This document shows, piece by piece, positions 1,585-46,280 of a stretch of DNA of 64,000 nucleotides. Position 1 is the first letter of the stretch. Each line of letters begins with the position of its first letter. Below the pieces are notes generated by a model, which worked only from the letters and a program-made list of their open reading frames with translations, was not told the origin of the DNA and searched no databases. This DNA is from Stegostoma tigrinum. Its lineage: Eukaryota. The DNA lies in NCBI RefSeq assembly GCF_030684315.1, contig NC_081394.1, positions 11,576,658 to 11,640,657 of the forward strand. The letters are read 5' to 3'. The translations under genes and the position numbers were made by a program.

Positions 1585-1930
1585 AATCCCGACAGAGTGG
1601 AAAAAGACTATTTGGCTCAACAAATCCACATCAGCCCTCCAAACAGCACACCATGCAGACACATGTCATCCCTGTAACTCCAAATTTACCATCGATAACA
1701 CATCTAATATACACCTCTGCGAAGACTGTGGGCAAATTATCTCAGTCAATTCACAAATTAACACATCTTTGGATTGGGCAAGGAAGCAGGATCACCCGGA
1801 GAAATCCCGCAAAGACAGACACAGAACATGCAATCTCCACTCAAACAGTTGCCCAAGAGTGGAATTGAGCCCCAGACCCGAGCACCAGGTCGCAGCAGTG
1901 CTAAACAATGAGTCATCCTGCCACTCCACA
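1585..1930 (-). mobile_element. HE1-like tRNA-derived SINE
   Basis: Minus-strand tRNA-like head (gtggcaggatgactcattgtttagcactgctgc...gggctcaattcc), central gtggagattgcatgttct core and a CR1-type tail. Confidence 0.7.
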
Positions 1931-4254
1931 AGTGCAGCACTTATCATTGCTGACATTCCAGGCTGTTCTTCTCCTTTAACATTGACTCTGCAATGTTCTG
2001 TTTTACAAAGTTATTTTCAGCTATGAACGTGCGTTGATTTCTATTCTGTCCCCTGCAAGAATACCATTAACAATCATGATCTCTTCAGCGAAATTGAAAT
2101 GCTTCCAAACTAAGATTAACAGTTGCTTTGGTGTTGCGAACTAAAAACCTTGTTATGCTGCACAGGTCATCACCAGGCTCTGTAAATATTGATTCAAGAG
2201 TCTAATGAGCTGGTGGTGGAAATTAGTCTGAGAGCAAGAGCTAGTGTATATCAGGGATGGAGGAGAAAGTTGTTTTTTTTTAAAAGTGTTTCATTTATAT
2301 ATTAATCAAATAGCACTGCAGCTGACACCAAAAAGACTTCTTTCCACGCTAAAATCCGACCCCCGACCCCGACATGACCTCCCTCTGACCCCGACATGAA
2401 TTAAGTCTGAACCTGGAATGACTGAACTTGAACTCTGACACAAACCCAGAAGTAACTCCATGGCTAAGCTGAACTAACCCAAAACGGACACCAATATAAA
2501 TCCATCTCAATTCCAATGCACTACTTGACACACTTTCCATGACTCCAACATGGTAGTGTCACTTACCAGTCAGGATTCTGACATAATCAAACCTTGTTGG
2601 CGCTTATGTCATAAGTAATTCTATTTTGACGCCAATGGCTGACCCCCTGACATATCTGTACATATACAACATTGAGTGCTCACATACAACCCAACGGCTT
2701 CTCTAGGACTTCAGTGGCAAACTATCATAAAATCGTTGACACACACGTGCAATGCTGCATCTTACTGCAGACCGTTCCATACACATGCTAGTAAGTGAAG
2801 TAGTAACATTCAAACCATCAAGCAAGGTGGATTCAAGTTCGCTCAGTGAAAAAAAAAACAATTTTGAGGAAATAATTGTTTCCATACTTGAAGGGAAGGC
2901 ATTCACAAGAGAAGGGTAGGTGAAGTCTGGCATTGATTCCCTCCAAATATCTAAAGAATGCTCATAAGTGCAAAAACATTGATGTTCCTCCTGTAACACA
3001 GACCAAGATTCGTGACTCGAGCAGCAGGAAATGCCAACACAGCTACCTACATCTCTTCTGTCCACTCAGAATGGAAGAAAAACACAATAAAAATAAGACA
3101 TCTTCCTGTTGACATTGCAAAAGTGTAATTGTTCCACCTCAAGCAAATGCAATTAAGGAATTCTACATAAACTGTTAATTGTTAATCCTGAAAGATGCCC
3201 ATCAGGTCAGGAAGGATAACATGTTTCCAGGCGTGTCGTGAGAGGTAACCAAAGGACACAAAGTTAATAGAATCAGAAAATGAACCAAAGCAGCGAGGCA
3301 GCAGCAAAAAAAAATTCCAGCGTGAGTTGTAGTAATGGGTACCAGGCTTCCCGAAAGACCAGAATGAACAACAATTTATAAAAGGAGATTAGATAAATAC
3401 ATAAATGCGAACAATTGGATGTTTGTGGAGAAAAAAAAAACATTGATTGTGTCAAATTGGATCGCATTTTCAAAAGTGTGTGCACTGAAATGCTGTGCAA
3501 AATAGAAACATATGCTGAAGCAATCTATGCTTTGACAAGCACTGTGGGAATTCTGATAGCAGAGGTGAATATAAAATGAAATACACAAATAAAAAATAAG
3601 AATTGTTGAAACTGCTTTCTTGTTGTTTTTGTGTTTACTTTCCAATGACTGGAGCATAATAGCAAGGAATGAAGTTAAAAAAAAAACACACACACACGCA
3701 CAAACACACACACATGCACACGTGCACAAAATTGATTAAAGAGAGCGAGTTAATTAACTTAAAAACCAGGACGTCAACAGTGGCAATCTCTGGATTACTT
3801 CGAGTGCTATATAGTAATAATTGTCAAAAAAGGAATGTTTGGCAGGTGAATGCAAGGCGAAATAATTGGTGAAGGGGGCACGGATGAAGATTACTGGACC
3901 ATTGGTAACTTCTATGGTAGAGGTGATCTCTTCAAGAGTAACAGGCTGCACCCTTACGGGACGGGGATCAAGATCCTGACGGGCATACTTATGAGCACTA
4001 CAAGGGAAGGTTTAAAATAGATTGGCACAGGGTTGAAGCCTCAGGAGCACAGAGTCAAATATGACTCTGGAAGGAGATACAGTAATCAGAAATACAATCC
4101 TTAAGTTGAAGAGGATCTTCTGAGGAAAGGTCGCTCGACCGGAAATGTCAACTCTGTTTTTTTTATTTCCCTGAGCTGTCAATCAACTTTGTTTTTGCTC
4201 CTAATTTGAAGAGACACAAAATGCTGTAACACACCACGGAGTGAGGAATGCCTT

Positions 4255-8130: not shown

Positions 8131-11100
8131 TCCGACTGCATGGTATATGCAATGGACAGGACACATCACTGGCAGAAAATTGATATGGCATCAATCCAGT
8201 CTCGAGCATCAGTAAGAGGCAGTGTTACATTGCATTAATGTCACTGTAACAGTCATCCCGAATTCCAAAGCACAGTTCAATTCAGTGTAGAGAATTGTAC
8301 ATTCTTTCTAATGGCCTTGCAATACCCTCTTTCACCAACATCTCTTTTTTTTTTCAAAAATCAGTGAAAGTTGTTGGACTGCATGGGCAGACAGTTTGGG
8401 AAATCTGACTGAACACTGAACTTTAAATTCGTCCTCTCATTGAAAATGTTACTGGAGGCTGAAAGCACTTATTCATTTTGAACGTTATTCCAAAATGGGC
8501 ATTCTTAGGATTTACGTCTGTCTGAGCCCGAGAACACGAAAATTCTGAGGAGGTGAACCAGTTTTCTTTGCTTTCCTTCGTACGTATCGCATTTGATGAC
8601 TTAACATTTCGCCCTTGAAACACAGTTCCTCAAGTGGGAACAGTCTTACAAATCAGAGTTCATTTTTCATGTCCAGTAATCAATTTCGTGCCCCATGAAT
8701 CTTTCATCTTGTTTAAACCACATCAACAGATCCCTGACACTGAACGATGTCAAGCCCACTCCGATTTTTGTCACGTATTGACAGGTAACCACAATTTGTA
8801 TTTACATGGACTTTGGCACTCATACAAAAATGAAGCATTATGCTTCACCATGGACTGGGCCATGACTGCGCGATAGACTACTGAGATCAATTTTCTCGTA
8901 TCATGTCATTCGACAAAACTAATAACATAGCACAACTATAGACCAACGGCAAATAATATATGTGATTGATATAATCTTTTTTATAGGATTGTTGAAAGGG
9001 AAACACTCAGGAAAGCCAGGACATGCCCACTCCAATTTGTATGGACAGATTATTCGAATTCCTGGAGAAGTAGTCAGTGAGAGGAGAGACATAATTTCCC
9101 GGAAGAATGCACCCTGTCTCTTTCAGGAGCACGAGATAATAAATGTCATTTGTGCTTCTGGCTGTCACTACATGAGATTTCGAGCACAGCTATGTGGAGT
9201 GCCACAATTGTTTTTTTATATTACTTCATCCTGACAACTTCATTCGTGCTTTGAGGTGCTGTGTGTGTCTGTCGTCCTCCAATCCCACAAACCTGAAAGA
9301 AACAAATTCATACAGAAGCAGTTATGGAACGCTGGCTGCACAATGATTCTCCTTCTTGCAGGTTATGCATCCAGAAATGCGAAAACAAGTCACTCTGTTA
9401 AAAAGCTGGATAGATTGAATGATTTCATTACATAACAAAAAAAATCTTGTCACGTTTTCACCCAGTAACCCCGTAGGAGAAACAGTCACATCATGTCCAC
9501 GGATGTAAAGGGCATGAGACCATGAAATATGACCTCTGCTAGTCATACACACTGTGGCCATGTGAATATCACAAAAAGCACTGACTGGACGAAGCTTGCA
9601 AGATAACGTATGCAGCATTTTGGGTATATAGGCCTGTGGAGATGTCATTATCAGGAATGGCTTATTGGGTATTGTTACTGTGATGATGTATTTGGGAATA
9701 GTTGTCCAGGGTTGATGTTTCTCCAAGAATCAATGTATGGGCTCAAGCAATCAAAGCACGAGTGGGCCATTCACCCCCACAAGTTTCCCTATAATTCTTC
9801 AAGATTATGGCTGATAACCTTCTGGTTTCATCTCCAAATGACCGATGGCCAGCATTTACACTACTTCCAGGGGAATGCCATACTCCCCTCCACTCTTGAT
9901 CCTTCAGCAGGGGTGACTTACTCTGCGACACCGTGGCCAACAACTTTTTCATTCGCAACACCTGCTCACACCGCTATTGCAGGTTTCCAAGTAATCAGAG
10001 AGGCTCAACATTTGCCGTTTTCTCACCTCCCTCCTCAGTACCTTTGGACATGACCACATTTCCAAGCGACTTGCCTGCATATCACGCAATCAGTTTCACT
10101 GAAAAAAAGACTTCAGACAGTTAGCAATTATTGACATCGGGTATGAGGGTTGCAGAGTAACTTTCAGTGCAACCAATTTACAGTTCCGTTGAAACGCAAT
10201 CAATTTGCAATTTTGATCTTGTGTAGTCTTGAAATTGGTCTACATGAAAAGGAAAATGCTAAGTTTATCAAAAGGGTCTGATATCCTAGAATACATTCCT
10301 TTCTCTACTCAGCAACACTCCTCCTGAGTGACAAGCCTGATTCCCATGATCTTGTTCTCTTTGTCATTCATAAAACTGCAACATTCTAAAGTCTGCTTCC
10401 TTTCCCAAGAGCGCAAGTACCATATCCAGGAAACCTAATAAAACTTCTACGTGAGCACCACTGCGTCAAGTCAAGGCCTTATGCTTACTTGCACTGAAGT
10501 TGGCCCCCCTCTCTCTAGTGTCAATATTGAGAGCACCCACCACCACGATCACAGATCACCACACGAGCCTAAATGTCTCCGCAGGGAATCATCAAGCTGA
10601 TGGAAATCACAGAGAAAAAAAAAACAGAGATTGAAAGTGAGCAGGAGAAAGTTAAAGGGCATTGTTAAAGTTTACGCTAATCTATAGAAATCGATGGATC
10701 GCGATTGAGTCAATTCTACCATCACATAAGATTCAGATAAGTAGAAAGAGAGAAACCACAATCAACACAGCATCTTGGATCACAGAGTGTAGGCAAGTGG
10801 TTCTTTTGATTATAATCAAACGTTGTTAAGTGAGGACTTAACAACAGCAATTTGTTGAAGTATAAATGTTTATTAAGTAATAATAAAAATAAATGGGAAG
10901 TAAAATAAAGTATTTCTAAAGCTTTTCTACCCTCCTGGACTTCATCGATTGATGTCTGGTCTGGAGGCTTATGTTTATTCGTGGTACAATTCTGTGGTGA
11001 AGTCCAATATCTTGGAACAATTCTCTTTCTTTTGCACAGCGTAATAAACAACAAATGTAGACAATAAAGAAGCTAATTGTGCCAGATTCGGCGTGCCCAG

Positions 11101-11944
11101 GAATGTTTGCTGATTTCATTTAAGGACGTGCATCGTCACTTTTAGCTCAACCTGTACAGACATAGTTTAGTGAGATGGTCAGCGCATTCAAATGAAAAGT
11201 CAGTATTTGAGACAGATTATTGGAGAACTTCTTGACTCACAAGAATCTGTCGGGCTCTCTGAAGGATTTATTGGCCAAAGATTGACATTGGTGATTCTGC
11301 TTTTCTGCAAAATCAATGGAATTAAGTTGTGCTGTCTGAGACAGTCATTGAGTCTACAATTTGACCTACCCTCTTCATTGCACACTTTCCTCAATAGGGC
11401 TGGCCAGCTAGGATCCAGATATGCTATCCAGGTGAAAGATACAACCAGCTTTTGTGAGCAAATATCCTCTCATTCTGAATGGTGTAGTGAGCAAGGATCC
11501 TGATATGGAGGTTGATCTCCCATAATGTTGCTTCATTAGGATCGTTGTTGCCACTGGACATTGGCAATTACATTTTATACCCTGTGCCTAGGTTGATCAA
11601 ACTGGGAAAAATCTGTGACCAAAGTATCAGATAAGTAGGGAGCAGGAAAGACAGATCGGGCTGATTGTGCTCAGTGTGAGCTTTGGATGGAATCAGCAGT
11701 AATAACTGTGCTCTGGTCATTTCCCCAGCACAATGCAAAAACTGAGTATTGGATAATTCATTCCAACACAACAGTTATGTTCCCCACCAGGCCTTGTCAT
11801 GGAAATTTTACGGAAATAAAAATAAATTAGGGCCCTTGTTAAATCTCATTTGTCTTTTCTTGTCTCGATTGAACATTTCGTTTGTAAAACAAACAAGCAA
11901 AAGATTGAGGAAAATCTCAACATTTCAAAAATTCATGTACTGAA

Positions 11945-14455
11945 TTCTGTGGTTGGTTCTTTCATCAAGCTAGTTCGTTAGTTCGCAGATGTTTCATTAT
12001 CATGTTGTGTAACATCATCAGTGCAATGTTTTGAGTTTCCTGACTTGGTATTTAAACTTTGGGGTCCATTGGAATTGGTTTCCTCATTTACATTTTTTTT
12101 TCTTCACAGTGGTATATGCATATAGGTCTAATTCTTGGCGGGGAAGCAAGCATCGAGAAATTCACGTGTTTGTCTCTGTTTGGCTTGTCCTAGTATCCTA
12201 ATGTTGTCCCAGTCCAACTAACGTTCTCCTTATCTTTGTGAATGGAGACAAAGGAGTCCTGGTCATGTGTTTTTGTTGTTAATTGGTGTTCATGTTTTCC
12301 TTTGGCAAGATTTCTTCCTGTCTGTGCAATGTAATGTTTGTTGCAGTCTTTGTGTGGCATCCTTTATACCATGTTGATTCTGTCCATAGTTGATATCAGT
12401 CATTTGGGTAAATAAAAAAGTCTCTCAGGCAGGGAACTAATAGTCACAAAGAAAATTGTTCTCACGCATGTACTCAACTGCAATCACAGAGATGCTAACA
12501 GGATGAAAGTTCACAATCACACCGTAATCCACACAAAAGCCCAACGGCGTCAATGATGAAACACAACCAACCATAAGACAGACAGTGCTGCCGGCACTGA
12601 ACTGAGGAATCAACGTTAACACAATTAACAAATCAGAAAAGAAGTCCCTCGAAAGATTGTAAAAAAAAGGCAAAATATCATAATCCTATCAGCAGACAAA
12701 GGGCGTGTGACAGTAGTATGAAACAAAAGGGACTACCTCACTAAAGCACAGACGCCTCTTGCAGACTCGAATACGTTCTGACAGTTGCACATAGACCCGT
12801 CACTAAAACTGGATTAAAAAAATCATATTAAAGAGATTTAAATAGCCCAGACAAATCAACAAATTCAAACGCTAAAAATGAAGTCTGAAGGGACATACAG
12901 CTCCCCAATTCTACTGCCCCGCAAAAGTACCCAACCTTTTGCACGTCCCAGGTGTCTCATCTCCCTCCCAGGCACATCAACAGACAGGTTTGCCAAAGAT
13001 TTACAAAGGTGAAAGAACCTCGTCATCATGTCACCTTATTCAATCCACTCAGTCCAGGAGTTCCTGATTTTTCTCCAAGCCATAAGAATATACGAGCTCA
13101 CATTTGGTGTCCTTTGACGTTACCACCTGTTCACATCAATTGACATACTACTGACAGGAGAAACAGCAACAAAACGTCTGACAGAATCAGACCCAAGTGA
13201 GACCATCTCCACGTACAGCATGCTGAAAATACTGGACATTTGCCCCACGTCCCACTTCAGAGTTAATTGTCAAATCTATGAATAAATCAACGAGACACCC
13301 ATGGGGTTCACCTCTATGCAGACTCACAGCAGAAGCAGTCATAATGACGCTTGACAACACAACTTTTCTGCACATCCAAATTGAACTACCTTTCTGATAC
13401 GTCGATGAGACTTTTGTCATCGTTACACTGACAAAACCAGAGAAGACACCGCTGCATACGAACGACAATCTCACCAGCATCAAGTTCACCAAGGAAGAAA
13501 AAAAAAAGAATGCCCACTCCTGGACGTCATTGTCGGAGGGAGGTCCAGTGGGGAGTTTTTACAAAAGTACACAGAAAAAGCCACACACATGGATAAAATC
13601 CTGAAAGCAAGCACGCCAACATCCACAAAAGTAGTTGCATAAAAAAGAGTGACACTTTTGTCATTGAAAAGTGACAAAACCCTGCATCAATCAGGAACAA
13701 TGCCAAACGAAGCCTACCTTGAACAAATAGTTAAGGGCAACAGATACCCGAAAAGCTGGGTACAATGATGGCGATCACACAAACAACAATAGGGAGATAC
13801 AACACATGTTGACACATTTGTCAAGTCACCATACATCAAGAACTTATCCGAACTGACTACAAGACTTCGCTGACATTTGGGCGTCAGAGTGGCACACAAA
13901 CCAATGTCAACTCTATGCCACCTACTAACTCAAACCAAAGGCGCCTTACCCATGATGAACAGGATCAAAGTGATATACAAGATTGCACGCAAAAACTGCG
14001 ACAAATATTACAATAGGCAGACTGGAAGGTATCTGGCCACAAGGATAAATGAAAACCAATGAGCAACAAATGTATATGACCAGTGCTCTCTCGTCTCCAT
14101 TTACATGGATAAGGTGAAGGATTACTTCAATCTGGACTACATCAGGATACCAGGTCAGTCCAAAGAGAGACAGGCAATGGAATTTCGAGAGTTTGGTTCT
14201 CCAACAAGAATTTCATCAATAAACATACAAAATGAGACCCGACATATACACCATTGTGAAGAAAAACGGAAATGAGGCAATTAATTCCAACGAACCCCCG
14301 AGTGGGAAAGCACAACAGCACTTCATTGGAGCCTTCGCTGATGATGTTACACAACAGGATAATAAAATTTCTGTGAACTAATGAACGAACATGGTGAGCG
14401 AACGAAACATAAATTCTACAACCCGAGCCATAAATCTACTCAAGAACCTTTGTAA
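11945..14455 (+). mobile_element. Degraded Penelope-like retroelement with an inverted copy of its 3' end
   Basis: + strand fragments IIILSADKGRVTVV (~12675), VSFDV..LFTSI (~13105), TPMG-SPL (~13295), YVDETFVI (~13398) and a GIY-YIG-like VIYKIARKNCDKYYNRQTGRYLATRINE (~13970). 11945-12410 is an inverted homolog of ~13940-14420. Absent from unit B. Confidence 0.85.
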
Positions 14456-14940
14456 TTTACTGACTGGAATTGATTCCAATCCATATCCTAAAAAAAATCC
14501 TTTCCATTTTCAATTCCCACTTTTCTTCGATCTGATGTCTGTATGCCATATGCACCAATATATAGCGGTTTCAATCATTTCGATCATCTCATAATTTTCC
14601 AATAACTGAAGGAATGCATCCTACTTCTAATGATTGCTAACAGTGAGTGAGTGACAGAATATTTTCCGCTATTTTTGCTAATGTTAGGAAAGAGGCTATC
14701 ACTATCTTCCTTCTGTGATGGGCAAAAAAGTCACAAGAGCGTTATCTTGTTAGTATAATATCTCAGGGTTCTCACCCATCAAATATCTTGGAGAACAATT
14801 TTTTTTCCAGCGTCATCAATCAGAGGATCATTACCAGAATTCCAACAAAAAACTTCGTTTACACAGCCTAAGCTGTTTCACCCTTAAATAATCATGAATA
14901 ACATATTCCTGCTCATGTCACTATGGTGATCAGGCATGAC

Positions 14941-15054: not shown

Positions 15055-15950
15055 TCATTGGATGGTTTGGACTAGTCGAGTACATATGTACAGTAGAACA
15101 TTCTTCAACTGCTTTCGAAACTTTTTCTGTGTCACCACATATATACAAGTATTTGTGCAACAGCTCAAAAGTTGCAACATGAAGCCAATATCTCGCCAAT
15201 ATTGATTTAGCCGTACGGCATACCCCAACAACCTCATCCGTATCCATAATGTAGAAGTTAATAGTGGTGACCACAATAGGATAAAATTAGCAGAGATTAA
15301 GAAGAGTAAAATGATGGAATTTCTTCTGTTCTCCATCTCTGTATCTCTAGCATTTACTACATTTGTGCGAGTCCAGATTCTCTTGCGGAGGTTGGTGTTC
15401 ATTAAAATGTGTTTTCCTGTGAATGCGTTCAATAACAAAATAATGATAAATGGGATAATTGGGGTCAGCATATAATGAGCAAACTCGATGGAGCCCCAGA
15501 CCAAAGAGAATTGAACACCTGTTGATACAAAACAAAACCAGGGTTCTTTATGAAGCCGATACAGACCTGTAAACATGAAATACCAGAATATATTCTTCAA
15601 ACCACTCAAAACAGTCATTGCTCCGAGAATTGCAGCCGCTGTTTTCTCAGTGCAGTATCTACTTCTTAGCTTGCGGCAACAAAGAACTACAAAACGATCA
15701 AAGGTGAAAGCGACGGTGAACCATACAGAACAATCAACAGCTGTATACAGCAGGACAGCATGGATATTGCACAAAGGAACAGACATTAGAAAAACGAATT
15801 GTTTCCTAAAAACAATTGGAATCTGTCTCAACATCAGATCGAGGATAACAACGAGTAAATCTGCCGCTGACATGGCTACCAGGTAACGGGTAATCCATCT
15901 TGAGAGACCACACTTTGCCTGAGAGAGGATGACAATCGTGACAATGTTAA
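15055..15950 (-). CDS. GPR139/GPR142-like class A GPCR, copy A, coding exon 2 (TM1 to C-terminus); spliced product 385 aa
   Basis: Polypyrimidine acceptor TTCTTTACAG|TTAAC at 15951. Joins exon 1 in frame (GLA-V-NIVTIVIL); 262+896=1158 nt. Motifs: YLVAMSAADLL (TM2), CNIH...SVWFTVAFTFDRF (TM3), WFC (ECL2), LTPIIPF (TM5), FILLWSP (TM6), LQLLSCCTNTCIY...FR (TM7/H8). TGA at 15057-15055. The ORF-track extension to 16077 is intronic. Confidence 0.92.
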
Positions 15951-17882: not shown

Positions 17883-19097
17883 GAGCATAGAACATAGAAC
17901 ATTACAGCACAGTACAGGCTCTTCGGCCCTCGACGTTGTGCCGACCTGTCATACCGATCTCAAGCCCATCTAACATTTTCTATTCCATGTATGTCCATAT
18001 GCTTGTCCAATGACGACTTAAATGTACCCAAAGTCGGCGAATCTACTACCGTTGCCGACTAAGTGTTCCATTCCCTTACCACTCTCTGAGTAAAGAAACT
18101 ACCTCTGACATCTGTCCTATACGTTTCACCCCTCAATGTAAAGCTATGCCCCCTCGTGCTCGCTGTCACCATACTAGGAAAAAGGATCTCCCTATCCACC
18201 CTGTCTAACCCTCTGATTATTTTATATGTTTCAATTAAGTCACCTCTCAGCCTCCTTCTCTCTAATGAAAACAGCCTCAAGTCCCTCATCCTTTCCTCGT
18301 ATGACCTTCCCTCCATACCAGGCAACATCCCAGTAAATCTCCTCTGCACCCTTTCCAAAGCTTCCACATCCTTCTTATAATGTGATGACCAGAACCGAAC
18401 ACAATACTCCAAGTGCAGCTGTACCAGGGTTTTGTACAGCTGCAGCATAACCTCTTGGTTCCGGAACTCGATCCCTCTATTAATAAAAGCTAAAAAACTG
18501 TACGCCTTCTCAACAGCCCTGTCAACCTGGGTAGCAACTTTCAAGGGTCTGTGTACATGGACACAGAGATCTCTCTGCTCACCTACACGACTAAGAATCT
18601 TACCATTAGCCCCGTAGTTTGGCTTCTGGTAACTCTTACCAAAGTGCATCACCTCACACTTGTCTGCATTAAACTCCATTTGCCAGGTCTCAGCCCAGCT
18701 CTGCAGCTTATCTATGTCTCGCTGCAACCTACAGCATCCTTCGTCACTATCCACAACTCCACCGAACTTCGTGTTGTCTGCAAATTTGCCAACTCATCCT
18801 TCTATGCCCTCATCCAGGTCATTTATGAAAATGACAAAGAGCAGTGGACCCAACACCGACCCTTGCGGTACACCACTAGAAACTGGTCTCCAGGATGAAC
18901 ATTTATCATCAACTACCACCCTCTGTCATCTTTCAGCAAGTCAATTTTCGATCCAAACTGCTATATCTCCCACAATTCCATTCCTCCGTATTTTGTACAA
19001 TAGCCTATTGTGGGGAGCCTCATCAATCGCCTTGCTGAAATCCATATACACCACATCAACCGGTTTACACTCATCTACCTTGTCGGTCACCTTCTCA
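17883..19097 (-). mobile_element. Young 5'-truncated CR1 LINE with target-site duplication
   Basis: Open 231-aa RT C-terminus (LQRDIDKLQSWAETWQMEFNADKCEVMHFG...LEYCVRFWSSHYKKDVEALERVQRRFT) and a (TTCTATG)n tail at ~17886-17900. AAGAAAA flanks both ends (17876-17882, 19098-19104). The site is empty in B at ~48245. Confidence 0.92.
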
Positions 19098-20899
19098 AAG
19101 AAAAATCTCTACAACAAGTTAGACTTATACTTGATTCAGCGGTCGAGACACAGCCACGAGATTACATCGATCAGATGTTGAAGCATTTTCAAATCGACTT
19201 TCTCAGTGTTATTCTTATACAATTGCAGACTTGAGCACAGTTCTGCTGGTCCAGAAGAAGGGGCACAAATACTGACAAGAATAACTCACTTTTTGTAAAT
19301 GAAAAGAAACTGTATTAAGAATATTCTATTGATATACTGCCCATCAAAACATTCAATGATGTTTCTGACATACCTCTCGAACAGGCGTGATTTCAACCTT
19401 GATCTCTCAGTACCACACTCAAAGGTGAAATAATTCAACACTGCATAATAGAATCCAGTTAAATTATTTATTTATTTTAAATCCATATTTCTTGACAATT
19501 TACCCAGGAATGCCATTCCATACATCCAGAGTAGGTGGAGCTTGTACCTCGACTTTGTAGTTGAGGGACTGGCACACTACCATTGCACTGTTAGATCCCG
19601 AACATTGCAAGATGTTAAATTAGTTACAGTCAGCTGTAACAACTCTTCCAGCAGATTCACAGAAAGCTTCCAGCAACAGCTCGCCCACTTGTTTTGTCAA
19701 GCAATAGAACATGCTGGAAAGTGCATTGTCACAAGTAGCCACTTTATACAAGGTGAAACTTGACATTTGATTGAGATTGTCATTACTGTTGATCGTTCTG
19801 TTGAGGCGCTTTTCAGGCATCCAGGCAGTCTCAGTCTCGCACAATTAACTTTAAAAGATATAAACGCAACTTTCAGCAAGGTATTTGTTGAAGGATTATG
19901 TCATTTTATACAACTGCAGTTCAGAGATATCAGCGATGGGGAGATAATGATGTTTCCCCTAAAATTTGTCACTGATAGAAATGGAAATGCTCGTTTATAA
20001 ACAGTAACTGGAGAGTGGGATTGGGGAAAAATGGCTCACACTTGGCCGTTATTTACCTGGCACTGTATATTTGAGAGGTGATTCCTTTTTGAAGCACGAA
20101 TGCGCTGTTGCCGTAAGACAGAAGTGCAGAATTAAGGTAAAAGCAGTGGAACGCAGTGATCAGGTCAATCTTTTTTGCACATCTACTTGGTGAAAGGACA
20201 GTTCTTCCAAGAACTTGATCAAGCTTATGGTGTATTCAAGGTTATTAATAGCGATATAGAATGCAATAGTCAGTAGTTGTGTTAATTCTGAGAAAAACAA
20301 CCATTTGGGCCCAGCTATTTTTTCATGCCAATCACAGTGAAAGAAGTACTGGGGAGCTCAGTGCCTGACAGAAGGAAGAACAAACTTTTAAAAAAGATTC
20401 TAGCCTTTTGGAAATTAAAATGAGTGAGTAGACCAGACACGTTTTGATTGCATCCCTGAGAAAATAGGTATCTATCAACAAATGTTACAGTTAAACTCAG
20501 ATATAGAAGAGCATAAGGAAATTATAGATGTACATTCTGCAAGGAATGTGTGCTTGACGATTATGGGATCACATTCAAAGAGGCTAATAAATGAAACTGA
20601 GTTGCCACGATAAGAAATCTATCCTCTGAAAGTTTTTTTTTCAGTAAGAACTGCTTTGATAAACATCAGATTCAAAATTGGTATCTAATTATGCATTCGT
20701 TAAATTTACGATTTGTAGATGTCACAGAAAACGAAAATGTAGTGCAGGAGATTTAAAGATTGAGTGCACATGTTAGTCGATTGGAAACACAGTTTTATTA
20801 CTTTTGGGTCAGAAGATGAGCAAGGTTTTCTGCAGTCAGTTTGCAACGAAGAAGGCCTTAGTTCTGCAGCAGAGATCTCATGATAAAAGCAAAAGAAAA

Positions 20900-21205
20900 G
20901 CTATCAATCCAGAGACCTAGATAATGTAAAGGGAACCTGGGTTTCAATCCTGATGTCGCAAGTGGAGGAATTTTAACTCAGTATAAATTCAGAATCCACA
21001 GTCAAACGATGACTGTGGATTGATTGTCAGAAGCACCCACCTGCTTTGGAAATGTCCTGTCATGAAGGAAACTGCCATCCTCACCTGTTTTGGCCTCCAT
21101 GCAATTCCAGACACTCAGCAATGTGGTTGATTCACAAACTGTCTTCTGTAGAATTGTCGATGGGCAATGCTAGCTAGGCCTGCGATGAACACACCCATAA
21201 ATGCT
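20900..21205 (+). mobile_element. Ancient tRNA-derived SINE (Deu/SacSINE-like)
   Basis: ccagagacc...ctgggtttcaatcc head plus gaaggaaactgccatcctcacctg...cagcaatgtggttga core. Related copies at ~49900-50170, ~25330-25560 and ~60150-60400 (minus). Confidence 0.5.
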
Positions 21206-22680
21206 AATGGTTTTAAACAAAAGGGATAACACCAAGAAGTCTAAATTAAGATTGCAGTGGGAGAAGAAAGTGGATAGTCAAAATGTTGTCTCAATTGCTG
21301 CAGCTGTGCCATTGTCTTGGAATACGCCAATTAACTAAATCTTATCACAAAATACAAAAAAAAGGAGAAACTGCCAAATCATTGAAATTACAGTTTTCTA
21401 CTTGCAGTAGATAATTGTATCATTATTGGACGTAGGTGATGTTTTCCATTATTTTGTATTTTTAATTTAAAGCTAAAAAAAATCACCCTCTACATGAACG
21501 ATTTGGATTAAAAGTTATACTTAAAATGTTTTGAGTAATTAACGGGAAATTGCATCTTACATTGCATTTGGTTAGTTCAGTTGCAGGTCTAGCTGGTCTG
21601 TAATTCCAATAGCATGGATTCAATGTCTGAGGTTACTGTGAAGATCTTTTCTTCTGAGACTCTTCAGTAATTTGTGACGTGGTGATACTCATGTTATCTC
21701 ATCCTTGGACGTCGCTCTCTAAAGAGATTGCATCCAGGAATTCTGAATTAAATGGATTTCAACTCACAAGGAGCAGCTCTCCAAAAGCATGTGATTTCAG
21801 GTCAACCTGACAGATTATCTCCTGGTGTGCTGTGATTTCCGACTTTGTCCACCCCATTCCAATACCAACACCTCCATATTATGACGTGATATCTGAGAAT
21901 GAATAACAATTTCAAAGTTTGGCGTTTGAGCAAGAAGAAACAAAGGATAGATATAAATATTACAGTAGCGTTGGCAGCAATATGAAGATGTACTCCGCGT
22001 GGATAGATGAGACCAGTGTCAAATGCAAAATGGTAAACAATAAGTGACAAGCTGTACTGATTGGAAAGCACAGCAGGAATTACAAAACCTTCAATATTCC
22101 TCTGGTCCATCAGCAAACAAAAAAAGTGCAATAATTAGCTAATTCCAATTTTAAATTTGAATTAACTGAAATTAGACACCGATTTATTGCACTATTAACG
22201 TATGTAATTGTGTTCCACTGCTGCCAATGATGAGTATATGACGTGCTGTTCACGATTTAGCCCGTTTTAACTGTTTTTTTAAAGTCTAACTTCTTCTTAT
22301 CCGGGAGACTGTACGGTCACGTAATACAATCAGTCAGAACCATTGTGCTCCGTCCCCGTATGATTTAATCTGCTCATACTACTGCAGCCACGTATCTGGG
22401 ATTTCCACATCACTGACACGACTCACGTGAGATCGTCAGCCGATAAGAAATAGGAACAGAACTGGTTTCCTGTCCTTTCCTCTACTCTGAGGTTCCTTGA
22501 TTTCAGCCTTAAGTGTACACATGACCTCTCTCCATTGGCCACCACTTTCATTGCTCTCTGTGGCAATGTCTTCCAACATCTCGGGACCTATCATCTGAGG
22601 AAGAGGTGAGGATTTCTTCCCTGTTTGATATAGCTGGCATCCATCACCATACTTCAAAGGACAGTAGAATGTGATGGATA

Positions 22681-22823
22681 NNNNNNNNNNNNNNNNNNNN
22701 NNNNNNNNNNNNNNNNNNNNNNNNNNNNNNNNNNNNNNNNNNNNNNNNNNNNNNNNNNNNNNNNNNNNNNNNNNNNNNNNNNNNNNNNNNNNNNNNNNNN
22801 NNNNNNNNNNNNNNNNNNNNNNN
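22681..22823. other. Assembly gap (143 N) inside the intron of copy A
   Basis: Run of N. Confidence 1.
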
Positions 22824-24642: not shown

Positions 24643-24726
24643 TTATATATTGAAGGGAACGATTTATAAATAGACCGGGAAACCTCCAGTGACACAATTA
24701 GACTCTGGGTTTATTAGCATCAATTA
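24643..24726 (-). promoter_or_regulatory. Putative core promoter of copy A: TATA box, O/E-like site, two TAATTG homeodomain sites
   Basis: Minus strand: TAATTG (24726-24721), CTAATTG (24701-24695), TCACTGGAG (24692-24684) and TATATAA (24649-24643), about 90 nt before the ATG. All are present at the same positions in copy B. Confidence 0.6.

Positions 24727-24823: not shown

Positions 24824-24888
<65 letters not shown>
24824..24888. repeat. (CA)n microsatellite upstream of the copy A promoter
   Basis: About 32 perfect CA units. The homologous position is the N gap in B and the (TG)n tract at ~60885-60916 in C. Confidence 0.98.
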
Positions 24889-29370: not shown

Positions 29371-31379
29371 TTTATATCTTCTTTTTGTACTATAACATCT
29401 CCATTAATAATATCTCCTGAGTTTTCTTCGTAAACTCTTTAACAATCTTTGATTTTGTCAAATCCTGCTGAACACCTGAGTCATTGGGAAAAAAAAGAAG
29501 GAATTTCAAACTCAATAAGAGCGCAGTTTCAACGGTTCTTGTTGTTCATTTGTGTATTTCATTTTACACCGATCCTCTGGTATTAGAATTCAACAGGTAC
29601 TTGCAGATCATAGATTGTTTCTGTACCTATGTCTCTTCAGGCCATCACTTTCATGGAAACCCTTTGACAGTGTTATCAAATTTTACACAATTAATAGCAG
29701 TTCCCCATAACCCTACATTTATTTCAGAATTATGTATTCATCCAATTCGGCTTTGTAACTTGTACTCCATTCTGCATGATCCAGAAGCCTGGTATCCCTT
29801 ACTACTGCTTGCCATGACAAACGATTTTGTTGCTGTCTCACTGGTTTGGCTCATCTGCTGATTCTATTGTCGTTAGCCCTCTGGTTACATCTCACAACAC
29901 ACTTGGGAAAAAATAATAAATTTATTCATTTGAGAGATATCTTTCAAAATTAGGAGAGCAGCCTTCTGTGGAATCTCACAATCGGTCCTGCATGAGGGAG
30001 AGCACTTCCACCTTCTTCAGTCTCCATATGAAATTGTTTTGTTTTTATTGCCTTTTATTCTCCTCTGTGGAGTTAGATGAGATGTATGAAGTTATTTTGG
30101 CATTTCCTGCTGCTGAAGTCAATGGTATTGCCCTGTGTTAACGGGGGACTAGCGATGCTTTTGTTACTGTGATCATTCTTCAGAGATGTGGTGACAGTCA
30201 TTGTCTTGCTGCACCTTTCCTTCCCTTTTAAATGATTACCCTTCGAGTATGCAACTTATTCCTTCTTGAAAATTATTACTGTAAGCTTTGAGTGAATGAG
30301 AACCATGCTCGTCTGCTGAATTAAGTGTCATTACTCCACATGTTAGCATTTGTGTGCTGCACTATCAGTCAGACACATCATTGCACTTGCCTGTCAAGAA
30401 TGGCATAATAGATTGGAAATGAGACCGTGGGGGACGGGATTGTTTATTCAAGAGCACTCTTCAAGTAATAATAAAAAGATAAAACATCACTTTGAAAGCC
30501 ATATTAGGCGTTTTCATGAATTTGCAGAGTTATTGAACCTCCCAAAGGAAAAAAAATGGATGGCTTTCTGTGAGGGCAAGTTCTGTGAGACTTCAACTAT
30601 TTGGGAGCGTCATAAAGTTGGGTACGTTAAGACTTGGCCACAGTCAATGAGGGGTGATGTCAGAAGATCGGTCACTGGGGTCAAATTGGGGTTTGTGACA
30701 TGGGCGCCAGGATGGTCTGATTTTGTCAGAATACTTATTGGTAAGTCTGGCTGTCATCCTACACACGTGGTATATTGGAATCAAGATGGAATTATGTCAG
30801 AATCAACTTTTGGTCAGTTCAGTTAACGAGGGAGTTAAGACTGGATTTGTGTCAGAGTTTTTTGTGCAGTCATGCCACTGTCAAGTTATTATCACGCCAG
30901 GATGAGGGCGTGACAAGTCAAGGTCAGGGTTATTTGGTTCAGTCAGAAAGAAGTTTGTTTTGTGCCGGGGTGCAGTGCTTTTTGATTCATACACAAATGA
31001 AGCTTTTTTGAAATAGTCTATATCTACCTCACTGGCGTACACTTGCTCTTAGTCTCAAAGTTTGTTTCTTTTCACCTCCTGCTCCCTGCTATCATGAATC
31101 AATATTTAGTTATTCTTGTGACCACATTTTCCCCATTGGACGGTTTGAAATCTGCTACACCTGTAAAGAGAAACTAAGAACGAATATGTAAATATGACTT
31201 ACTTACGATTTCAATTTAGCTGAACAGATAATGATTGTGAATGATAGTCTTGCAGGGGACAGAATAAAATGCAAAGCTCATCCACTGGCAACAATAACAT
31301 TGTGAAAAACAATATTGCAGGGTAAATGTTAAAGCGGCAGAGCAGCTTGGAATGTCAGTATTGAATAAGTGCTGCTCAT

Positions 31380-31720
31380 GTGGAGCAGCTGAATGGCTTC
31401 ATGGTTAGCACTGATGCATCTTAGTGCCAGTTACGTAAATTCAACCCCACTTTTGGGTAACTGTTGATTTGGAGATTGCACATTCTCCCTGAGCCTGCCT
31501 GAACATTCTCCTGGTGTTTTAGCTTCCTCCGCCAATCAAAAGTGTGAAAAGTATGTGGATTGACCATGCTAATTTTCCCACAGTGCTCACAGATGTGTAC
31601 ATTCAATGTAAGAGCCATGGGAAATGCAGGGTTGCAGGGAAAGGGGGTGTCAGCGTGGAATGTTAATTGGAGGATTGGCGTGAATTTGTAGGGCCTACTG
31701 GTCTGTTTCCATGTTGTAGA
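31380..31720 (+). mobile_element. HE1-like SINE (paralog of 1585-1930)
   Basis: tggttagcactgatgc head, ttggagattgcacattctccc core and gggcctactggtctgtttcca tail. Confidence 0.7.
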
Positions 31721-32309
31721 GCTCATACTGAGGGAGCATTGCAATGTTGAATTGATTGCATTTACAAGAGTATCATCTGATCAAAAGTTTAGCCCTGTGT
31801 GAGATCTGCAATATGAAACGGGCATAAATGAAGAAATCATGCAATGAATGACAATGATTGGGAATCAATACCCTCTCTGACGATTAGCAGAATGAGCTCA
31901 TTAAGGTCAAAAGAGCAGGTCGAAGGAAGAGTTGCACAGTTAAAGTGCCGGTAATGAGGTACAACTGGAATTTTATGCAATCATGCAGGGAGTTGAGTAC
32001 TGTCAGAAGAACTGCATTGCCAGATGTTCACAACCGAGGGAGATCTGTACTGTCTGATGTTCAACATTATGTTTTTTTTTTGCACGGCTATCTTATCCAT
32101 AAGTAGCATGGGCTACTGTTTCGGACTTTGCCAGTAGTTGGCTGTGTGTCAAATAATTTTCCAAGAGAGGCCACAACACTATGTATCACTCCATCAAAAT
32201 GATCGGAAGTAATTGTACCTTCACTAATCACACAGATCAGCATGGAGTCAATTGAGGACTGAATTGATTACAATGATTTTCATTTTATTGATTTATTGCA
32301 AAAAATAAG

Positions 32310-33990
32310 TCTCAAGCGTTGGCAGCAATTTTCGGAAAGAAGTGCGTAGTGAATGATCCATCTTGGCCTCCTCCAGTAGACCCCAGCATTACAGATACCA
32401 GTCTTCAGCCTATTCGAATCTCTCCACGTGATATTAAGACATTGTTGAAGGCATTGAATACTACCCAGCCTCTGGGTCCTGACATCATTCCAGCAATTGT
32501 ACTGAAGACATGTGATCCAGAACTTGCCGCTCGCCAAGCCAAGATACTCCAGTACAGTTACAATGCTGGTATCTTCCTGGCAAGATGAAAAATGTCCAAA
32601 TGTGTCCTTTACACTTCAAGCAGGACAAATCCAACCCAGCCATTTGCCGCCCCATCAGTCTACATTTGATCATCAATGAATTGATGGAAGGTGTCATCAA
32701 AAGTGCTATCAAGCAGTAACTTCTTGGAAATAACCTGCTCAGCGATGACCAAATTGGGATCTGGCAGGGCCACTCAGCTCATGCTCTCAATACACTGTTG
32801 GTTCAAATTTGAACAAAAGAGCTAAATTCCAGAGGTGAGGTGAGAGTGACAGCCATTGCTATCAGGGCTACAGTAGAACGAGTGTGGTATCCACGAGCAT
32901 GAGCAAAACTGGAATCAATGCGTATCAGGGTCAAAATCCTTGTTGGAGTTGTAATTGACACATAGGAAGATGGTTGTGGTTGCTGGCAGCCAACTGTCTC
33001 AGCTGCATGAAGTGTGTGTTGTGTTTCGTCAAGGTATTGCCCTTGGCCCAACCATCTTCAGATGCTTCAGTTATGACGTTCTGTCCATGATAAGTCCGGA
33101 AATGGAGATGCTCGCTGACGATTGCACAATGTTCAGCACAATTCGTGACTCCTCAGATAATGAAGCAGTCCATGTAAACATGCGGCATTTTTGTACAATA
33201 TCATGGGCTTTGGCCTGCAAGTGGCAAGTGACATTTGTTTCACACAAATGCCAAGCTATGAAAATCACCAATAAGATGCAATCTCACGACCATCCCTTAA
33301 CATTTACTTGTGATAACATCTATGCATACCCTACTATCAATATGCTGGTGGTTATCATTGACTACAAACTTAGCAGGACTCACCACATTAACACATTGGC
33401 TGCAAGAGCCGGCCAGAAACTCAGAATACTGCATCGAATTGCGAACTTCCTGAACCCTATATGCTTGTATGCAATTGACAAGGCACAAGCCAGGACGCTG
33501 ATGGAAAGCACCCAGATGCCTGGTGGAGTGCAACCACAACAAGATTCAAGACGTTTGACAACACCCAGGCAAAAATAACGCGCATCATTGACATTACATC
33601 CATGAACATCCACTCCCTCCACCACCGACACTCATTAGCAGCAGGGAGCATGTTTTATGAGATGCCCAGCAGAAATTCACCAAAGATCCTCAGACAGCAC
33701 CTTCCAAACAAACCACGAATTCCAGGACAAGGGCATCATATGTATGGGAACACCAACACCTTCAATTTCCCCTCCAAGTCACTCACCATCTTGACATGGA
33801 AATATATCAAAGTTCCTTCACTGTTGATGGGTCAGAATCCTGGAATTCCATCCCTAATAACATAGTGATTCGACCCACAGCAGGAGTACTGCAGCATTTC
33901 TAGAACACAGTGCACCACCAAATGTCAATGGTAACTAGGGTTAGGCAAGAAACCCTGGCCAGTCGACATTGCCTCCATCCCACAAATGAA
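32310..33990 (+). mobile_element. Degraded CR1/L2-group LINE
   Basis: ALNTTQPLGPDIIPAIVLKTC, QGIALGPTIFRCF..MLADDCT and KWQVTFVSHKCQAM. Absent from the homologous site in block X (~1035). Confidence 0.85.
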
Positions 33991-34996
33991 CAGAAAAATA
34001 AACTAAAAAAGAACCTCAATGTTGGACATTCACATCAGCACCAGGGAATTTAAAAATGGAACATACACAATGTATTTCTTATCAAAGGAATTGGCACTGT
34101 GTGATTCATAAGCTGAAAATAGGTCGTTTCATGAACTTTCCCTTGAATCCAGTGATGCTGTTGATTAATGTGCCCAAGCAAGTCAGGATAAGCATAAATC
34201 TGAATCATGAGGAGAACAACAATATGTAGGAATGATGTATTGAGAGGCAAACATAGAGATGCTCACACATCACATACTGTACAATCCACAGAACCGATAG
34301 ATTACTGAACATCCAAACTCGGAAAGATGGATTGCCTGTGAACATAGTGTCAACCAAACCCAGATCCTGCGCAGTTACATGGTCAGAGACCACAAATAAT
34401 TTCAACATCAAGATTTTGAGAAGCAAAGGAAAACATTCCTAGAAAAAAATACTCACTTGGTCTGGGAGAATCTGTGAGGGGAAAAAAAAAAGAAAATAAA
34501 GAGATAATGTTTCAGGTCTGGTTACCCTTCCTCAAAAGGGCCTGTTCTGAGAGTCACTGGTCCTAGAACATTAATTCTGTTTTTGTCTTGCTTTAGAGAG
34601 GCTGCCAGACTTGCTGGCCATTTCCAGCAACATGTCATTATTCATGCATTTTAGCATCCACAGCTCTTTCCGTTTTTATTGAGATCTTTCCCTGTTTGTG
34701 TCTATCTCATTCAGCTGTTATCTTGAACATATGTATTTTCTCTCAGCTTGCAGTTCGCTTTAACGTATTTTTCTTCTGATTACATGTAAACTGAAATCTG
34801 TATTTGCGTTCATCTCTCTACTTATGTAGTTTTCTTAGTCCACGTGTGTCGCTCTCTTTCTATTCAATCATGTTCTAGCACAGTATTCCACATATTCTGT
34901 CTGGTTTTATTTATTTCTGCTTCCTTTTCTCATCTGTTTACTTTTTAAAAGTCTTACTACCTATCTGACTCACAATCTCTCGCCACTGTGTGCATG

Positions 34997-35000
<4 letters not shown>

Positions 35001-35035
<35 letters not shown>
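35001..35035. repeat. (TC)n microsatellite, counterpart of the (GA)n at 31-52
   Basis: Directly visible. Confidence 0.95.
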
Positions 35036-35038
<3 letters not shown>

Positions 35039-42460: not shown

Positions 42461-45388
42461 CCTAGGAATGAACAGTTCCCACTACCTCTTCTCAGGCACT
42501 GTTGCCCACAACTCTTTCACTCCCATCACCTGCTCACACCACTACAGAAGTTTTCTAAGTAATCGGAGAAGGCTCAATATTTGCCCAGTCCTCACCTTCC
42601 TCCTCAGTACCTGAGGCCATGGCTGCATTTCCAAGTCACCCAAGGAGTTTTCTGCATTTCATTCAATCAGTTTCATTGAACGGTTTAGGATAGTCAGGGA
42701 TTATTTACATCAGTAATGAAGGTTGCATAATAACTTTGAATCCAAACCTTTTTTTCCTCGAATGCAAAAAAAAAATGTAATTTTGATCTTGTGTTGTTTT
42801 AAACTCAGCCTATCTGGCAACTGAATTGTAATATTTGTCAAAGTCTCTTATCTCCTCAATGCATTTCCGACTACATTTCCCAACCACACTCCTGAATTCT
42901 TGGCTATTATGCTGTCCTCTTATCTATTCATACTACCTCGTTTTTCAGAAACTCTCTTTACTTTCCAAGGAGCTGTAGCCCCCCTTCCTGGAAACCTAGT
43001 AATGTTTCTACTTGAACACTTTTGACTAAATCCAAGGCCTTGCGCCTGCTTCCACCGAGCCCGGTGTCCTCTCTCTCAAAATTCAATGTTGAGAGTATCC
43101 ACTCCCACAATCACCTATCAACACATTGGCCTTAGTGTCTGCTCAGAGAAACATCCATCACGTGTAAGTCACAGAGATAAAAAAATGAGTGAAATTGAAA
43201 AGGAGTAAGTAGAATGTCATTGGGAAAGCTGATATCAATCTGAAAATGTTGATGGATAGCGAGTGACAGTCAATTGTGCCATGGTGCCAGTTTCAAATAC
43301 GTAGTAAGAAAGAAAGCACGACTAAAATAGTGCATTCGATCACAAAGCATTGACAAGTGGTTCTTTTCGCATTCAATAAAAGTTTTTGCTTAAAGACATG
43401 ACCACAGCATTTTCTTTAAATATGCTTATTTACTAAGTAAGAATAAAACATGTGGTAACAAAGCAAAAAAAAGATAAACAATAACCTCATCTGCTTCATT
43501 CTGGGTCCCTACGATTGATTTTTCTTCTCGAGTCTGAGTTTCATTCCTGGGAATATTAACAATTCAGGGCTGAGTGAACTCCAATATCTTGCAACAAAAC
43601 TCTCCCTCTCGTACAGTGCCTCAAACAGCAAGTACAGAAAACAAACAGTCTTACTGTGTCAGCTTCTCCATTTGCTTGAATGCCTATACTCCTGATTTGG
43701 CTGGCTGGTTCGGCTGCAGAAATGTTATCCATGAGAACTATACGGCAGCTTTTGTAAATAAGTGCCCTCTCATTCTAAATGGAGTAGTGAGCAAGGAGCA
43801 TGACACTGAACTCGATCTCCCCAGAATTTGTTTCATCAGGATCGTTGCTGCCAGTGGCCAGTGGGGATTACATTTTATGCCCTGTGCCTAGTGTGAAAAT
43901 AAAGGTAACTGGCAGGAATCTGAGACAAGAGAATCAGACAACAAGACAACAGGAAAGACAACTCCTGCTGATTTATCTCTTTGTGAGCTTTCGGTGGAAT
44001 CAACATTTGTAACTGCATTCAGCTCATTTGCCAGTTGCAGAGTGAAAAATAAGTATTGAAGGAGGCATTGAAAAACATCAATGACGATCTCCTCCAGTCT
44101 TGGTATTGAAGATTTTTTAAAAATGTAACCTCGTCAAGCTTAATCTGTCGTTTGTTGTGTCGAAGGCATTTTTCACTTGAAAAAACCATGAATAAGAAAC
44201 AGATTTTTTTGACATTTCAACATGTCAAAACTTCATTTCTTACTGAATTATACTCCAAACCCTATGCTAAACATATTCTTCTGTAAATCTGAAATTCTAA
44301 GCTTTCCTTAATCTGATATTTATGTGTGACATGCTCCAATATCTAGCAGTTTCAATTACTTCAGATTTTAATCTCTGAATCTTACCAGAATTTGAAACAG
44401 ATAGGATGTTTCTGAATTTTTTTAACTGTCTCTCCTAGTAAACAACATTAACTAGCATCTGGGATTGTTAAACATTGTCAAGGATTATACATCTTTCCAT
44501 ACTGTGGACGTCAGATTTTGCTTATATTCCAATGTCTGAGATGCAGAAGGTTGTGTGCTTCTTCTATTTTACTTCAGTTGCAGTTGTCCTGTGTCTCATG
44601 GTGATTGTCAGCTGGCGAGGTATCTGATGATGTTTTCCATTTTGAGCCCTATTGCTTGAGTGTATTTGGAAATGGCATCGACTGACAGACAACTGCCATG
44701 TCCATTGGCTCGATAATTGTCGTCATTCACATACCCATGCACCATGGCGACTGAACCATAAATCAACGGAAATATCATGAGGAATAACGCATTCCGCGAA
44801 TTCTCAACCAGGAAGTGGACAGCCAAAATTTCTAATATGCCATTAATGATGTGAACCTGGTCTTCCAATCAATAATTAAGCACAGAACCAACTGCAATGG
44901 TTAAAGAAAGTTTGATCAGACCATCTCAGATTTCTCCGAGTACAGAAGGAACATATCCTACACCCCCAATAGTCGATCATTCTTAATGACAGGAGCTCTC
45001 CTTCTACTTTTACTCATGTTAGTCACTAGGTTATAATTCTCTTACCTCTGTGATGAGCAAAAGGGCACACCTCAAATACCTTAGAGAACAATAATGTCCA
45101 GAGGCGACAATAAGATGGAGGGACCAGCTGTGTTTCCTGACTTATTTTTCACAGCATAAGCTGCTCCTCCCGTTGAGAGCCATTTGTGAGAGCCATTATC
45201 TCTTTCCTAACCCAAGGTGACAGGGCATTACTTTATTTCTGTAACTCCAATGAGGATCAGGCAAAACAGCTATGTTTGTGCAAATTTTCTGACTTTTTAA
45301 CTAATAAGAAAAATCACATCGACTGTATGCTAAATGTGATCAAAAATCAAAAATTCTCCATAAACTCAATTTTTGAACAGGTACATCA

Positions 45389-46280
45389 TTATTTGGCTTG
45401 GAATTTTAAAGTAAATAAATGCAGTAGAATGTTCTTCAAATGCTTTCTGAACAATTTCTGAATCACAACATAAATACAAGTATTTGTGCAACAGCTCAGG
45501 AGCTGCAGCAAGAATCCAATATCTCGCCAATATCGATTTAACCATACAGCATACCCCAATAACTTCATCCGCTGCCATAATGTCGAAATCAACAAAGTTG
45601 ACCATAATAGAATAAAATTAGCAGATATCAAGAAGAGTAAAATTATGGATCTTCTTCTATTCTCCATCTCTGCGTCTCTGATGTTCCTTACATTGCTCTG
45701 AGTACGAAGTCTCTTGCGGACATTGGATTTCATTAAAATGTGTTTTGCTGTCAGTGCATTCAGCAGTAGAATAAGGAGAAATGGTATCACTGGGGTAAGG
45801 ATGTAATAAGCAAACTCGATGGAGCCCCAGACTAAAGATAACTGAACACCTGGCGAGACATAAGAAAACCAGGGTTCTTTATGAAGCCGATACAAATCTG
45901 TAAACATAAAATACCAGGAAATATTCTTCAAACCACTCAAAACAGCCATTGATATGAGAACTACAGATGCTGTTCCCTCAGTGCAGTAGCTACTTTTCAG
46001 CTTCTGCAACAAAGCACCACAAAACGATCAAAGGTGAAAGCGACAGTGAACCATACAGAACAATCAATAGCTATGTATAGCAGGACTGCATGGATATTGC
46101 ACAAAGGGATAGCCATAACAAAAATAAACTGTTCCCTAAAAACAGTTGGAATATGTCTCAACATCAGGTCCAGGATAACAACGAGTATATCTGCCACTGA
46201 CATGGCCACCAGGTAATGAGTAATCCATCTGGAGAGACCACACTTTCCCTCAGACAGGATGACAATCGTTATAACGTTGA
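45389..46280 (-). pseudogene. GPR139/GPR142-like GPCR copy B, exon 2 (frameshifted)
   Basis: Acceptor TTCTCTACAG|TCAAC at 46281. The 7TM sequence is split between ORFs 45997-46209 and 45389-46012 by a 1-nt deletion after DRFVVLCC (~46006). The ECL2 Cys (WFC to WFS) and TM6 Pro (WSP to WST) are also lost. Confidence 0.88.

Follow-up and report, generated by a model that had tools for sequence, protein, structure and literature searches.

The stretch at 24643-24726, read on the minus strand of the window (the whole 64,000 nucleotides of DNA analysed), is probably a genuine core and proximal promoter, composed of a TATA box and homeodomain-type (HD) sites, in a greatly expanded GPR139-related receptor family of cartilaginous fishes. 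The motifs lie directly above an intact receptor gene (gene A), and conservation between this gene and its duplicate (gene B) is concentrated on the motif columns. From this anatomy we infer promoter activity, the identity of the factors and the cell type, and by analogy the arrangement may loosely resemble the gene switches of smell receptors. In the mechanism proposed here, TBP would bind the TATA box and direct transcription to start about 65 nt above the ATG, leaving a short 5' UTR; the TAATTG sites would be occupied by one or two homeodomain proteins, and the degenerate site next to the proximal TAATTG may recruit a protein of the EBF family. Jointly, the TBP, homeodomain and EBF inputs would make expression of the gene specific to one neuronal or sensory cell type.

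Anatomy of the probable promoters of gene A and its duplicate

Gene A is an intact two-exon GPCR gene for P0001, the Stegostoma tigrinum 'probable G-protein coupled receptor 139' (385 aa). Gene A (8.9-25.4 kb) and gene B (39.6-56.2 kb) constitute a duplication of about 17 kb, and parts of a third, inverted copy (copy C) were also found. The features are as follows.

15055-15950, minus strand: gene A coding exon 2, TM1-TM7, intact, Pfam 7tm_1, 100% identical to P0001
24294-24555, minus strand: gene A coding exon 1, encodes residues 1-87 of P0001, including the first half of TM1; phase-1 GT donor
24643-24649, minus strand: gene A TATA box TATATAA, inside a 21-nt block with 20/21 positions identical to B
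24683-24692, minus strand: gene A EBF/O-E-like 10-mer TCACTGGAGG, matching the consensus at 5/8 positions, 2 bp past TAATTG, 9/10 identical in B
24695-24701, minus strand: gene A proximal homeodomain-type site CTAATTG, identical in B
24716-24726, minus strand: gene A upstream homeodomain-type site TAATTGATGCT, identical in B
24824-24888, minus strand: (GT)n microsatellite directly above the gene A promoter; the same place holds an N gap in B and a degenerate GT tract in C
45386-46280, minus strand: gene B exon 2, pseudogene, 1-nt deletion near 46003
55114-55374, minus strand: gene B exon 1, pseudogene, disrupted by a 1-nt frameshift near 55280 and by an in-frame stop (TAG) at 55225-55223
55462-55468, minus strand: gene B TATA box TATATAA
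55506-55537, minus strand: gene B TAATTGATGCT, CTAATTG and EBF-like TCCCTGGAGG (6/8)
59720-60916, plus strand: copy C, inverted homolog of the A upstream region, ending at the GT tract, without promoter or exon 1
62983-63994, plus strand: copy C, homolog of the 3' part of the A intron (A 17651-16359)

The exon 2 comparison of A with B gave a dN/dS of 0.28 (295 codons), indicating that both genes were long functional and under selection. Among nine intact paralogs tested, P0005 was closest to exon 2 of B (86%). In copy C, a LINE (about 60918-62990) takes the place of the promoter and exon 1, and the copy has also lost about 6.5 kb of intron; its exon 2 would be expected just past the window end, and copy C is probably a dead gene. 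Exon 1 of A carries degenerate copies of a 14-aa (42-nt) repeat (24588-24400, minus strand). The N-termini of relatives contain this unit in near-perfect form, Met-initial, often with an N-glycosylation sequon and in variable number (up to about 6), which suggests an expandable ectodomain with staggered start codons.

The motifs that the original prediction had placed in A and B were all recovered as exact minus-strand matches. The proximal composite reads CTAATTGTGTCACTGGAG in A (24701-24684) and CTAATTGCGTCCCTGGAG in B (55524-55507), while the upstream TAATTGATGCT (A 24726-24716, B 55537-55527) and the TATA-bearing CAATATATAACC (A 24652-24641, B 55471-55460) each occur twice, with no third occurrence in the 64 kb. 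We take the ATTGAT inside TAATTGATGCT of gene A to be an Onecut/Cux-type core. As claimed, CAATATATAACC lies downstream of the composite, but A has a gap of 31 nt and B one of 35 nt, rather than 35-40 nt. From the composite it is 33-37 nt down to the TATA box and about 130 nt to the ATG, and the TATA box of gene A is 94 nt above the annotated ATG of P0001, implying a 5' UTR of about 65 nt and a predicted transcription start near 24620. The region is AT-rich (GC 26-44% in 50-nt bins); its HD sites are present and kept, and its O/E site is degenerate. Judged from the sequence, the TATA box and both TAATTG sites look real, and the EBF site is weak or doubtful. Two assembly gaps are present, at 22681-22823 (143 N) and 55579-55709 (131 N), the second of which adjoins the B promoter opposite the (GT)n tract of A.

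Read instead as a splice branch point, CTAAT would mark the end of an intron before the coding exon, and the actual promoter would lie farther up; we regard this as very improbable. We take CTAAT to fit the branch-point consensus, and the gene models of four relatives turn unrelated just above a conserved GA-rich 5' stretch, suggesting that these models splice in there. However, the first AG past CTAAT is GAG, several AGs intervene, none of the candidate AGs is preceded by a 15-base stretch with more than 10 pyrimidines, and the conserved TATA box would be left unexplained. The extension of one model, P0062, is a LINE reverse transcriptase and thus likely a prediction artefact. The composite was also considered as coding sequence (frame LIVSLEV / LIASLEV) and rejected, as it has no ATG and meets stops within a few codons in both copies.

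Conservation between the copies and expectation by chance

Identity between A and B was 70-72% in introns and flanks, 82-83% in the coding exons and 78% in the promoter, a value reached by 3.9% of 1,903 non-coding windows. In the promoter, 28/29 motif columns matched, compared to 44/61 of the other columns, and the spacers contained indels of 12 nt and 4 nt, in agreement with the earlier description of them as diverged and indel-bearing. The excess in motif columns had a nominal P of 8e-4 against a base-specific background, an over-optimistic value, since the motifs were selected once the alignment had been seen. TAATTG was kept in the other copy at 2/2 promoter sites, compared to 3/11 (A) and 3/10 (B) background sites. 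Similarly, TATAWAW was kept at 2/4 (A) and 2/2 (B) promoter matches, both kept matches being the two strands of one box, and at 0/9 (A) and 0/11 (B) background matches. Three 17-column blocks with at most two mismatches each were found together in 5.8% of 9,481 background windows. Promoter conservation thus exceeds the background modestly, lying in the top 3.9-5.8% of non-coding windows.

Several non-coding blocks exceed the promoter in A-B conservation (81-87%), at 20940-21080, 21760-21880, 22380-22468 and 9929-10060. Some of them presumably resemble shark SINE/LINE tails, and the block at 22380-22468 could be a candidate intronic element.

Across the window, the composite was not enriched (3 versus 1.32 expected, with 15/100 shuffles reaching 3; also 6 versus 2.74). 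TAATTG is common (66 sites versus 57.7 expected), HD and EBF-like sites within 0-3 bp of each other occurred 21 times at at least 5/8 and three times at at least 6/8, and the full layout of HD, EBF of at least 5/8 and TATA occurred 3 times in the 64 kb, 2 of them at the A and B promoters. An intron of B contains TAATTA-C-TCCACTGGAA (54648-54664, plus strand), a 1-bp-spaced HD and EBF-like (6/8) composite that is not kept in A, showing that such composites arise by chance. This stronger composite, the absence of enrichment and the recurrence of three equally good blocks in the background all favour the reading that only the TATA core, or nothing, is functional and that the HD and O/E-like sites are AT-rich words matched by chance in a 70%-identical segmental duplicate. 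We nevertheless consider this reading unlikely: both TAATTG sites, the TATA box and nine of the ten EBF-like bases are kept at the exact position expected of a promoter, while the spacers are at background identity and carry indels. Against the promoter reading, which we prefer, it counts that the comparison is between two copies only, A and B, with B a pseudogene and copy C having lost the region, and that the poorer of the two EBF matches (5/8) belongs to the intact gene, at a level seen beside an HD site 21 times in the window.

Further copies were sought in two ways. A blastn search of the window with both promoters returned A, B and short chance matches only; 14455-14474 and 47391-47360 were rejected as promoter copies, having neither composite nor exon on inspection. 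The promoters of other paralogs were sought through N-terminally extended protein models, of which 5/270 had enough extension, and none of the five aligned convincingly to the HD/EBF/TATA region above 30 shuffles. Among these comparisons, P0028 against B beat 30/30 shuffles at a low score (13.4) and failed against A, and P0259 matched the 5' UTR end alone. A search for homologs of exon 1 yielded one match, without extension.

Comparison with the mouse olfactory code

In mouse, OR promoters show enrichment and conservation of HD and O/E sites, and a subset of them has TATA (PMC3247239); a review describes most OR promoters as being without a well-placed TATA (PMC5318403). The side-by-side HD/EBF composite is described there as a feature of OR enhancers, not of promoters (PMC5608512, PMC12547500). 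The original prediction had called adjacent HD and O/E sites a hallmark of OR promoters and enhancers, which holds for the enrichment of sites in promoters but not for the side-by-side composite, which marks enhancers. The mouse sites are reported to be 1 bp apart (PMC11643329); a 2-bp insertion in the composite weakened binding of a fusion protein, and pyrimidine/purine stretches are tolerated (PMC5608512).

Compared by base counts rather than by a published weight matrix, the shark composite matched the EBF consensus TCCCNNGGGA at 5/8 (A) and 6/8 (B) positions in the 2-bp register, bearing out the caveat that the intact gene has the weaker O/E match, and at 3/8 (A) and 4/8 (B) in the 1-bp register. 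Unshifted identity to the J-element composite was 13/17 for B and 12/17 for A (hand count, with the J sequence inferred from a mutagenic primer, PMC7804114), and identity to the Sfaktiria composite probe was 9/17 for B (hand count; probe from PMC5608512). The Lhx2-type TAATT core is present in A and B as CTAATTG, and TAATTG likewise occurs in the Sfaktiria probe. In the shark composite, as in the Greek Island and J-element composites, TAATTG is followed directly by a C-rich and then a G-rich stretch, and another HD site lies close by. Unlike them, the shark composite is placed in a TATA promoter, and its better-scoring EBF register is 2 bp, not 1 bp, although its spacing compared with the mouse composite is ambiguous. 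Greek Islands are characterised by an intergenic-enhancer location; the A/B composite sits directly above the TATA box and by location is no enhancer.

Mouse OR and V1R proximal promoters share with the shark promoter an AT-rich composition and, at most 100 bp from the predicted start, HD sites and a candidate, degenerate O/E-like site; TATA is present as in the OR subset. Unlike those promoters, the shark promoter drives a non-OR receptor with a coding first exon and an intron splitting TM1. O/E-like sites have also been described in V1R promoters (PMC3247230). The V1R/OR motif GNNNTCTGGR was tried and had no match, the base preceding CTGG not being T.

The receptor family and its possible role

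A search with exon 2 returned 2,852 candidates, 1,864 clusters of which had E<=1e-10, and clustering at 50% still left 105 representatives at E<=1e-30. Among the 120 matches listed of the 1,864, 119 were named, all from sharks (nine species), and one was unnamed; of the zebra-shark members among them, ten share one 19-Mb contig and six are placed elsewhere. With the distant hit P0227 as query, a skate member and the amphibian/sturgeon lineage described below also came up. In a quick tree of 58 chosen named rows, midpoint-rooted and with no outgroup, nine zebra-shark paralogs from the one 19-Mb contig formed a single clade (support 100). Among shark GPCRs, no expansion may be larger than this one. 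A literature search, weak on subscription papers, found no description of a shark GPR139-like expansion or its expression, and the term 'gpr' is absent from the zebra shark genome, catshark sensory and OR-kappa papers (PMC10620051 and PMC13113109 among them).

The family is laid out in tandem arrays on several chromosomes, with pseudogenes, a conserved inner face and hypervariable outer loops. Across 116 of the 120 listed proteins (the set excludes two tandem fusions, one composite model and the unnamed entry), mean entropy was 1.6-1.9 bits in ECL2, outer TM6 and ECL3, compared to 0.3-0.7 bits in TM3, inner TM6 and TM7; the N-terminus was also variable. The combination of tandem arrays, pseudogenes, a conserved inner face and hypervariable outer loops would fit a set of receptors that has diversified to detect external or varied ligands, which on these sequence features is most likely chemosensory.

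The best match of solved structure was human GPR139 (PDB 7VUG/9M42; also GPR142), a remote one (E 5e-8) and the source of the automatic name. Compared at the GPR139 pocket residues given in PMC7318219, the shark family, like GPR139, keeps an aromatic residue at 3.33, H5.43 and W6.48, and D3.37 is invariant within it (116/116). However, E3.32 of GPR139 is replaced by L (114/116), R6.51 by L or F (114/116) and N7.38 by F (105/116). Orthology with GPR139 was therefore rejected, the E3.32/R6.51/N7.38 pocket not being kept and the family being multi-copy and fast-evolving. OR identity was rejected as well: 7tm_1 was the sole Pfam match at E<=1, and OR hallmark peptides (four motifs) were found in 0/116 proteins. 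By sequence, the family is thus neither OR nor true GPR139.

The nearest named non-chondrichthyan relatives found were amphibian and sturgeon proteins labelled 'probable GPR139' (P0227, P0271-P0290), which align with gene A across 329 columns at 30% identity; the amphibian lineage scored far nearer to the shark family than human GPR139 did. It comprises a single cluster for each of 20 amphibian species (66-74% identical) together with a sturgeon member, and the receptor appears to be single-copy. Unlike the shark family, this lineage keeps K6.51 and N7.38, and it is distinct from true GPR139. In the quick tree (midpoint root only), a long branch parted it from 37 chondrichthyan rows, and the gene is a candidate sister of the shark expansion. 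Bony fishes have extra GPR139/142-related subtypes, GPR210A/B, as described in PMC6504862, and these may be identical with the amphibian/sturgeon lineage. By search alone, the next-nearest clusters were invertebrate FMRFamide/SPR-like receptors and nematode srw chemoreceptor GPCRs, with the Srw Pfam on 16-74% of members; this superfamily is known for chemoreceptor expansions (PMC3963977).

A specifically olfactory reading would have Lhx2 and Ebf act on an enhancer-like composite in each promoter of an unrecognised olfactory family, expressed sparsely in microvillous neurons. By analogy with mouse, we regard this as possible, though short of probable. It gains from the identity to the J element, from the tolerance of pyrimidine/purine stretches, from the O/E-like sites of V1R promoters and from the chemoreceptor-like birth-and-death and variability of the family, and it loses from the low Sfaktiria identity, the poor 1-bp register and the enhancer nature of the mouse composite. 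The shark nose bears on it in both directions. Known shark olfactory receptors number only about 10-50 despite large noses, and v2r1, a putative V2R co-receptor, labels 5.94 cells/mm ('moderate frequency') whereas TRPC2/Go label all OSNs (PMC10116579); many shark olfactory neurons may therefore be without an assigned receptor. In the same source, catshark OSNs are essentially all TRPC2/Go microvillous, ciliated OSNs, the neurons that use the OR programme, are apparently absent from sharks and OR genes were detected in catshark OSNs for 0/8 (PMC10116579), which argues against a literal OR programme in sharks. The catshark top-50 list of 'brain and olfactory epithelium' genes contains no GPCR, a weak point since V2Rs are missing from it too, and the main text of this atlas makes no mention of the shark GPR139-like family (PMC11979771).

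Alternatively, the HD and EBF sites may serve other cells, such as taste, skin or solitary chemosensory cells, lateral line or electroreceptors, sensory ganglia (MRGPR-like), a brain programme inherited from GPR139, or leukocytes; this, too, we hold as a tentative reading. EBF factors also operate in many neurons and in B cells, and the MRGPR and FPR families expanded outside olfaction, but vertebrate GPCR families with hundreds of genes are mostly olfactory or vomeronasal. TAATTG suits many homeodomain matrices (PMC3247239, Table 1), GPR139 itself is described as a gene of habenula, striatum and hypothalamus (PMC12208981), and many shark OR, ORA and TAAR genes are reported to have their highest expression outside the nose (PMC11979771).

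For the family as a whole, a speculative proposal, which we would not yet call probable, is that cartilaginous fishes possess a fifth, overlooked and very large olfactory receptor family of GPR139-related class A receptors, mislabelled 'probable GPR139', which would have grown from a gene that stayed apparently single-copy in amphibians and been recruited into olfactory neurons through an Lhx2/Ebf composite in each TATA promoter. If true, such a family would explain why so few shark olfactory receptors are known and why many olfactory neurons have no assigned receptor, would represent an independent origin of vertebrate olfactory receptors, and would place the Lhx2/Ebf code at work in microvillous neurons and in promoters. 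Expression elsewhere would still leave a large unexplained sensory or immune repertoire. The promoter by itself is modest, with short, partly degenerate motifs in two copies, and its value lies in pointing to the receptor expansion; the puzzle of a keen shark nose with about 10-50 receptors becomes testable with existing olfactory RNA-seq.

The window also contains other repeated DNA. A second duplicated unit (21-3631 versus 29507-35038, inverted) has 65-69% identity and no convincing Pfam match; 30/36 gaps in its alignment are frame-breaking, and it is apparently non-coding cluster DNA. Downstream of gene A, 11942-12387 and 13955-14416 form an inverted 450-bp repeat pair (70% identity). Decayed LINE reverse-transcriptase/endonuclease fragments are located at 18059-19181, 32295-33865, 58328-58969 and 60918-62992, with RVT_1 at 32955-33575 under the curated cut-off.
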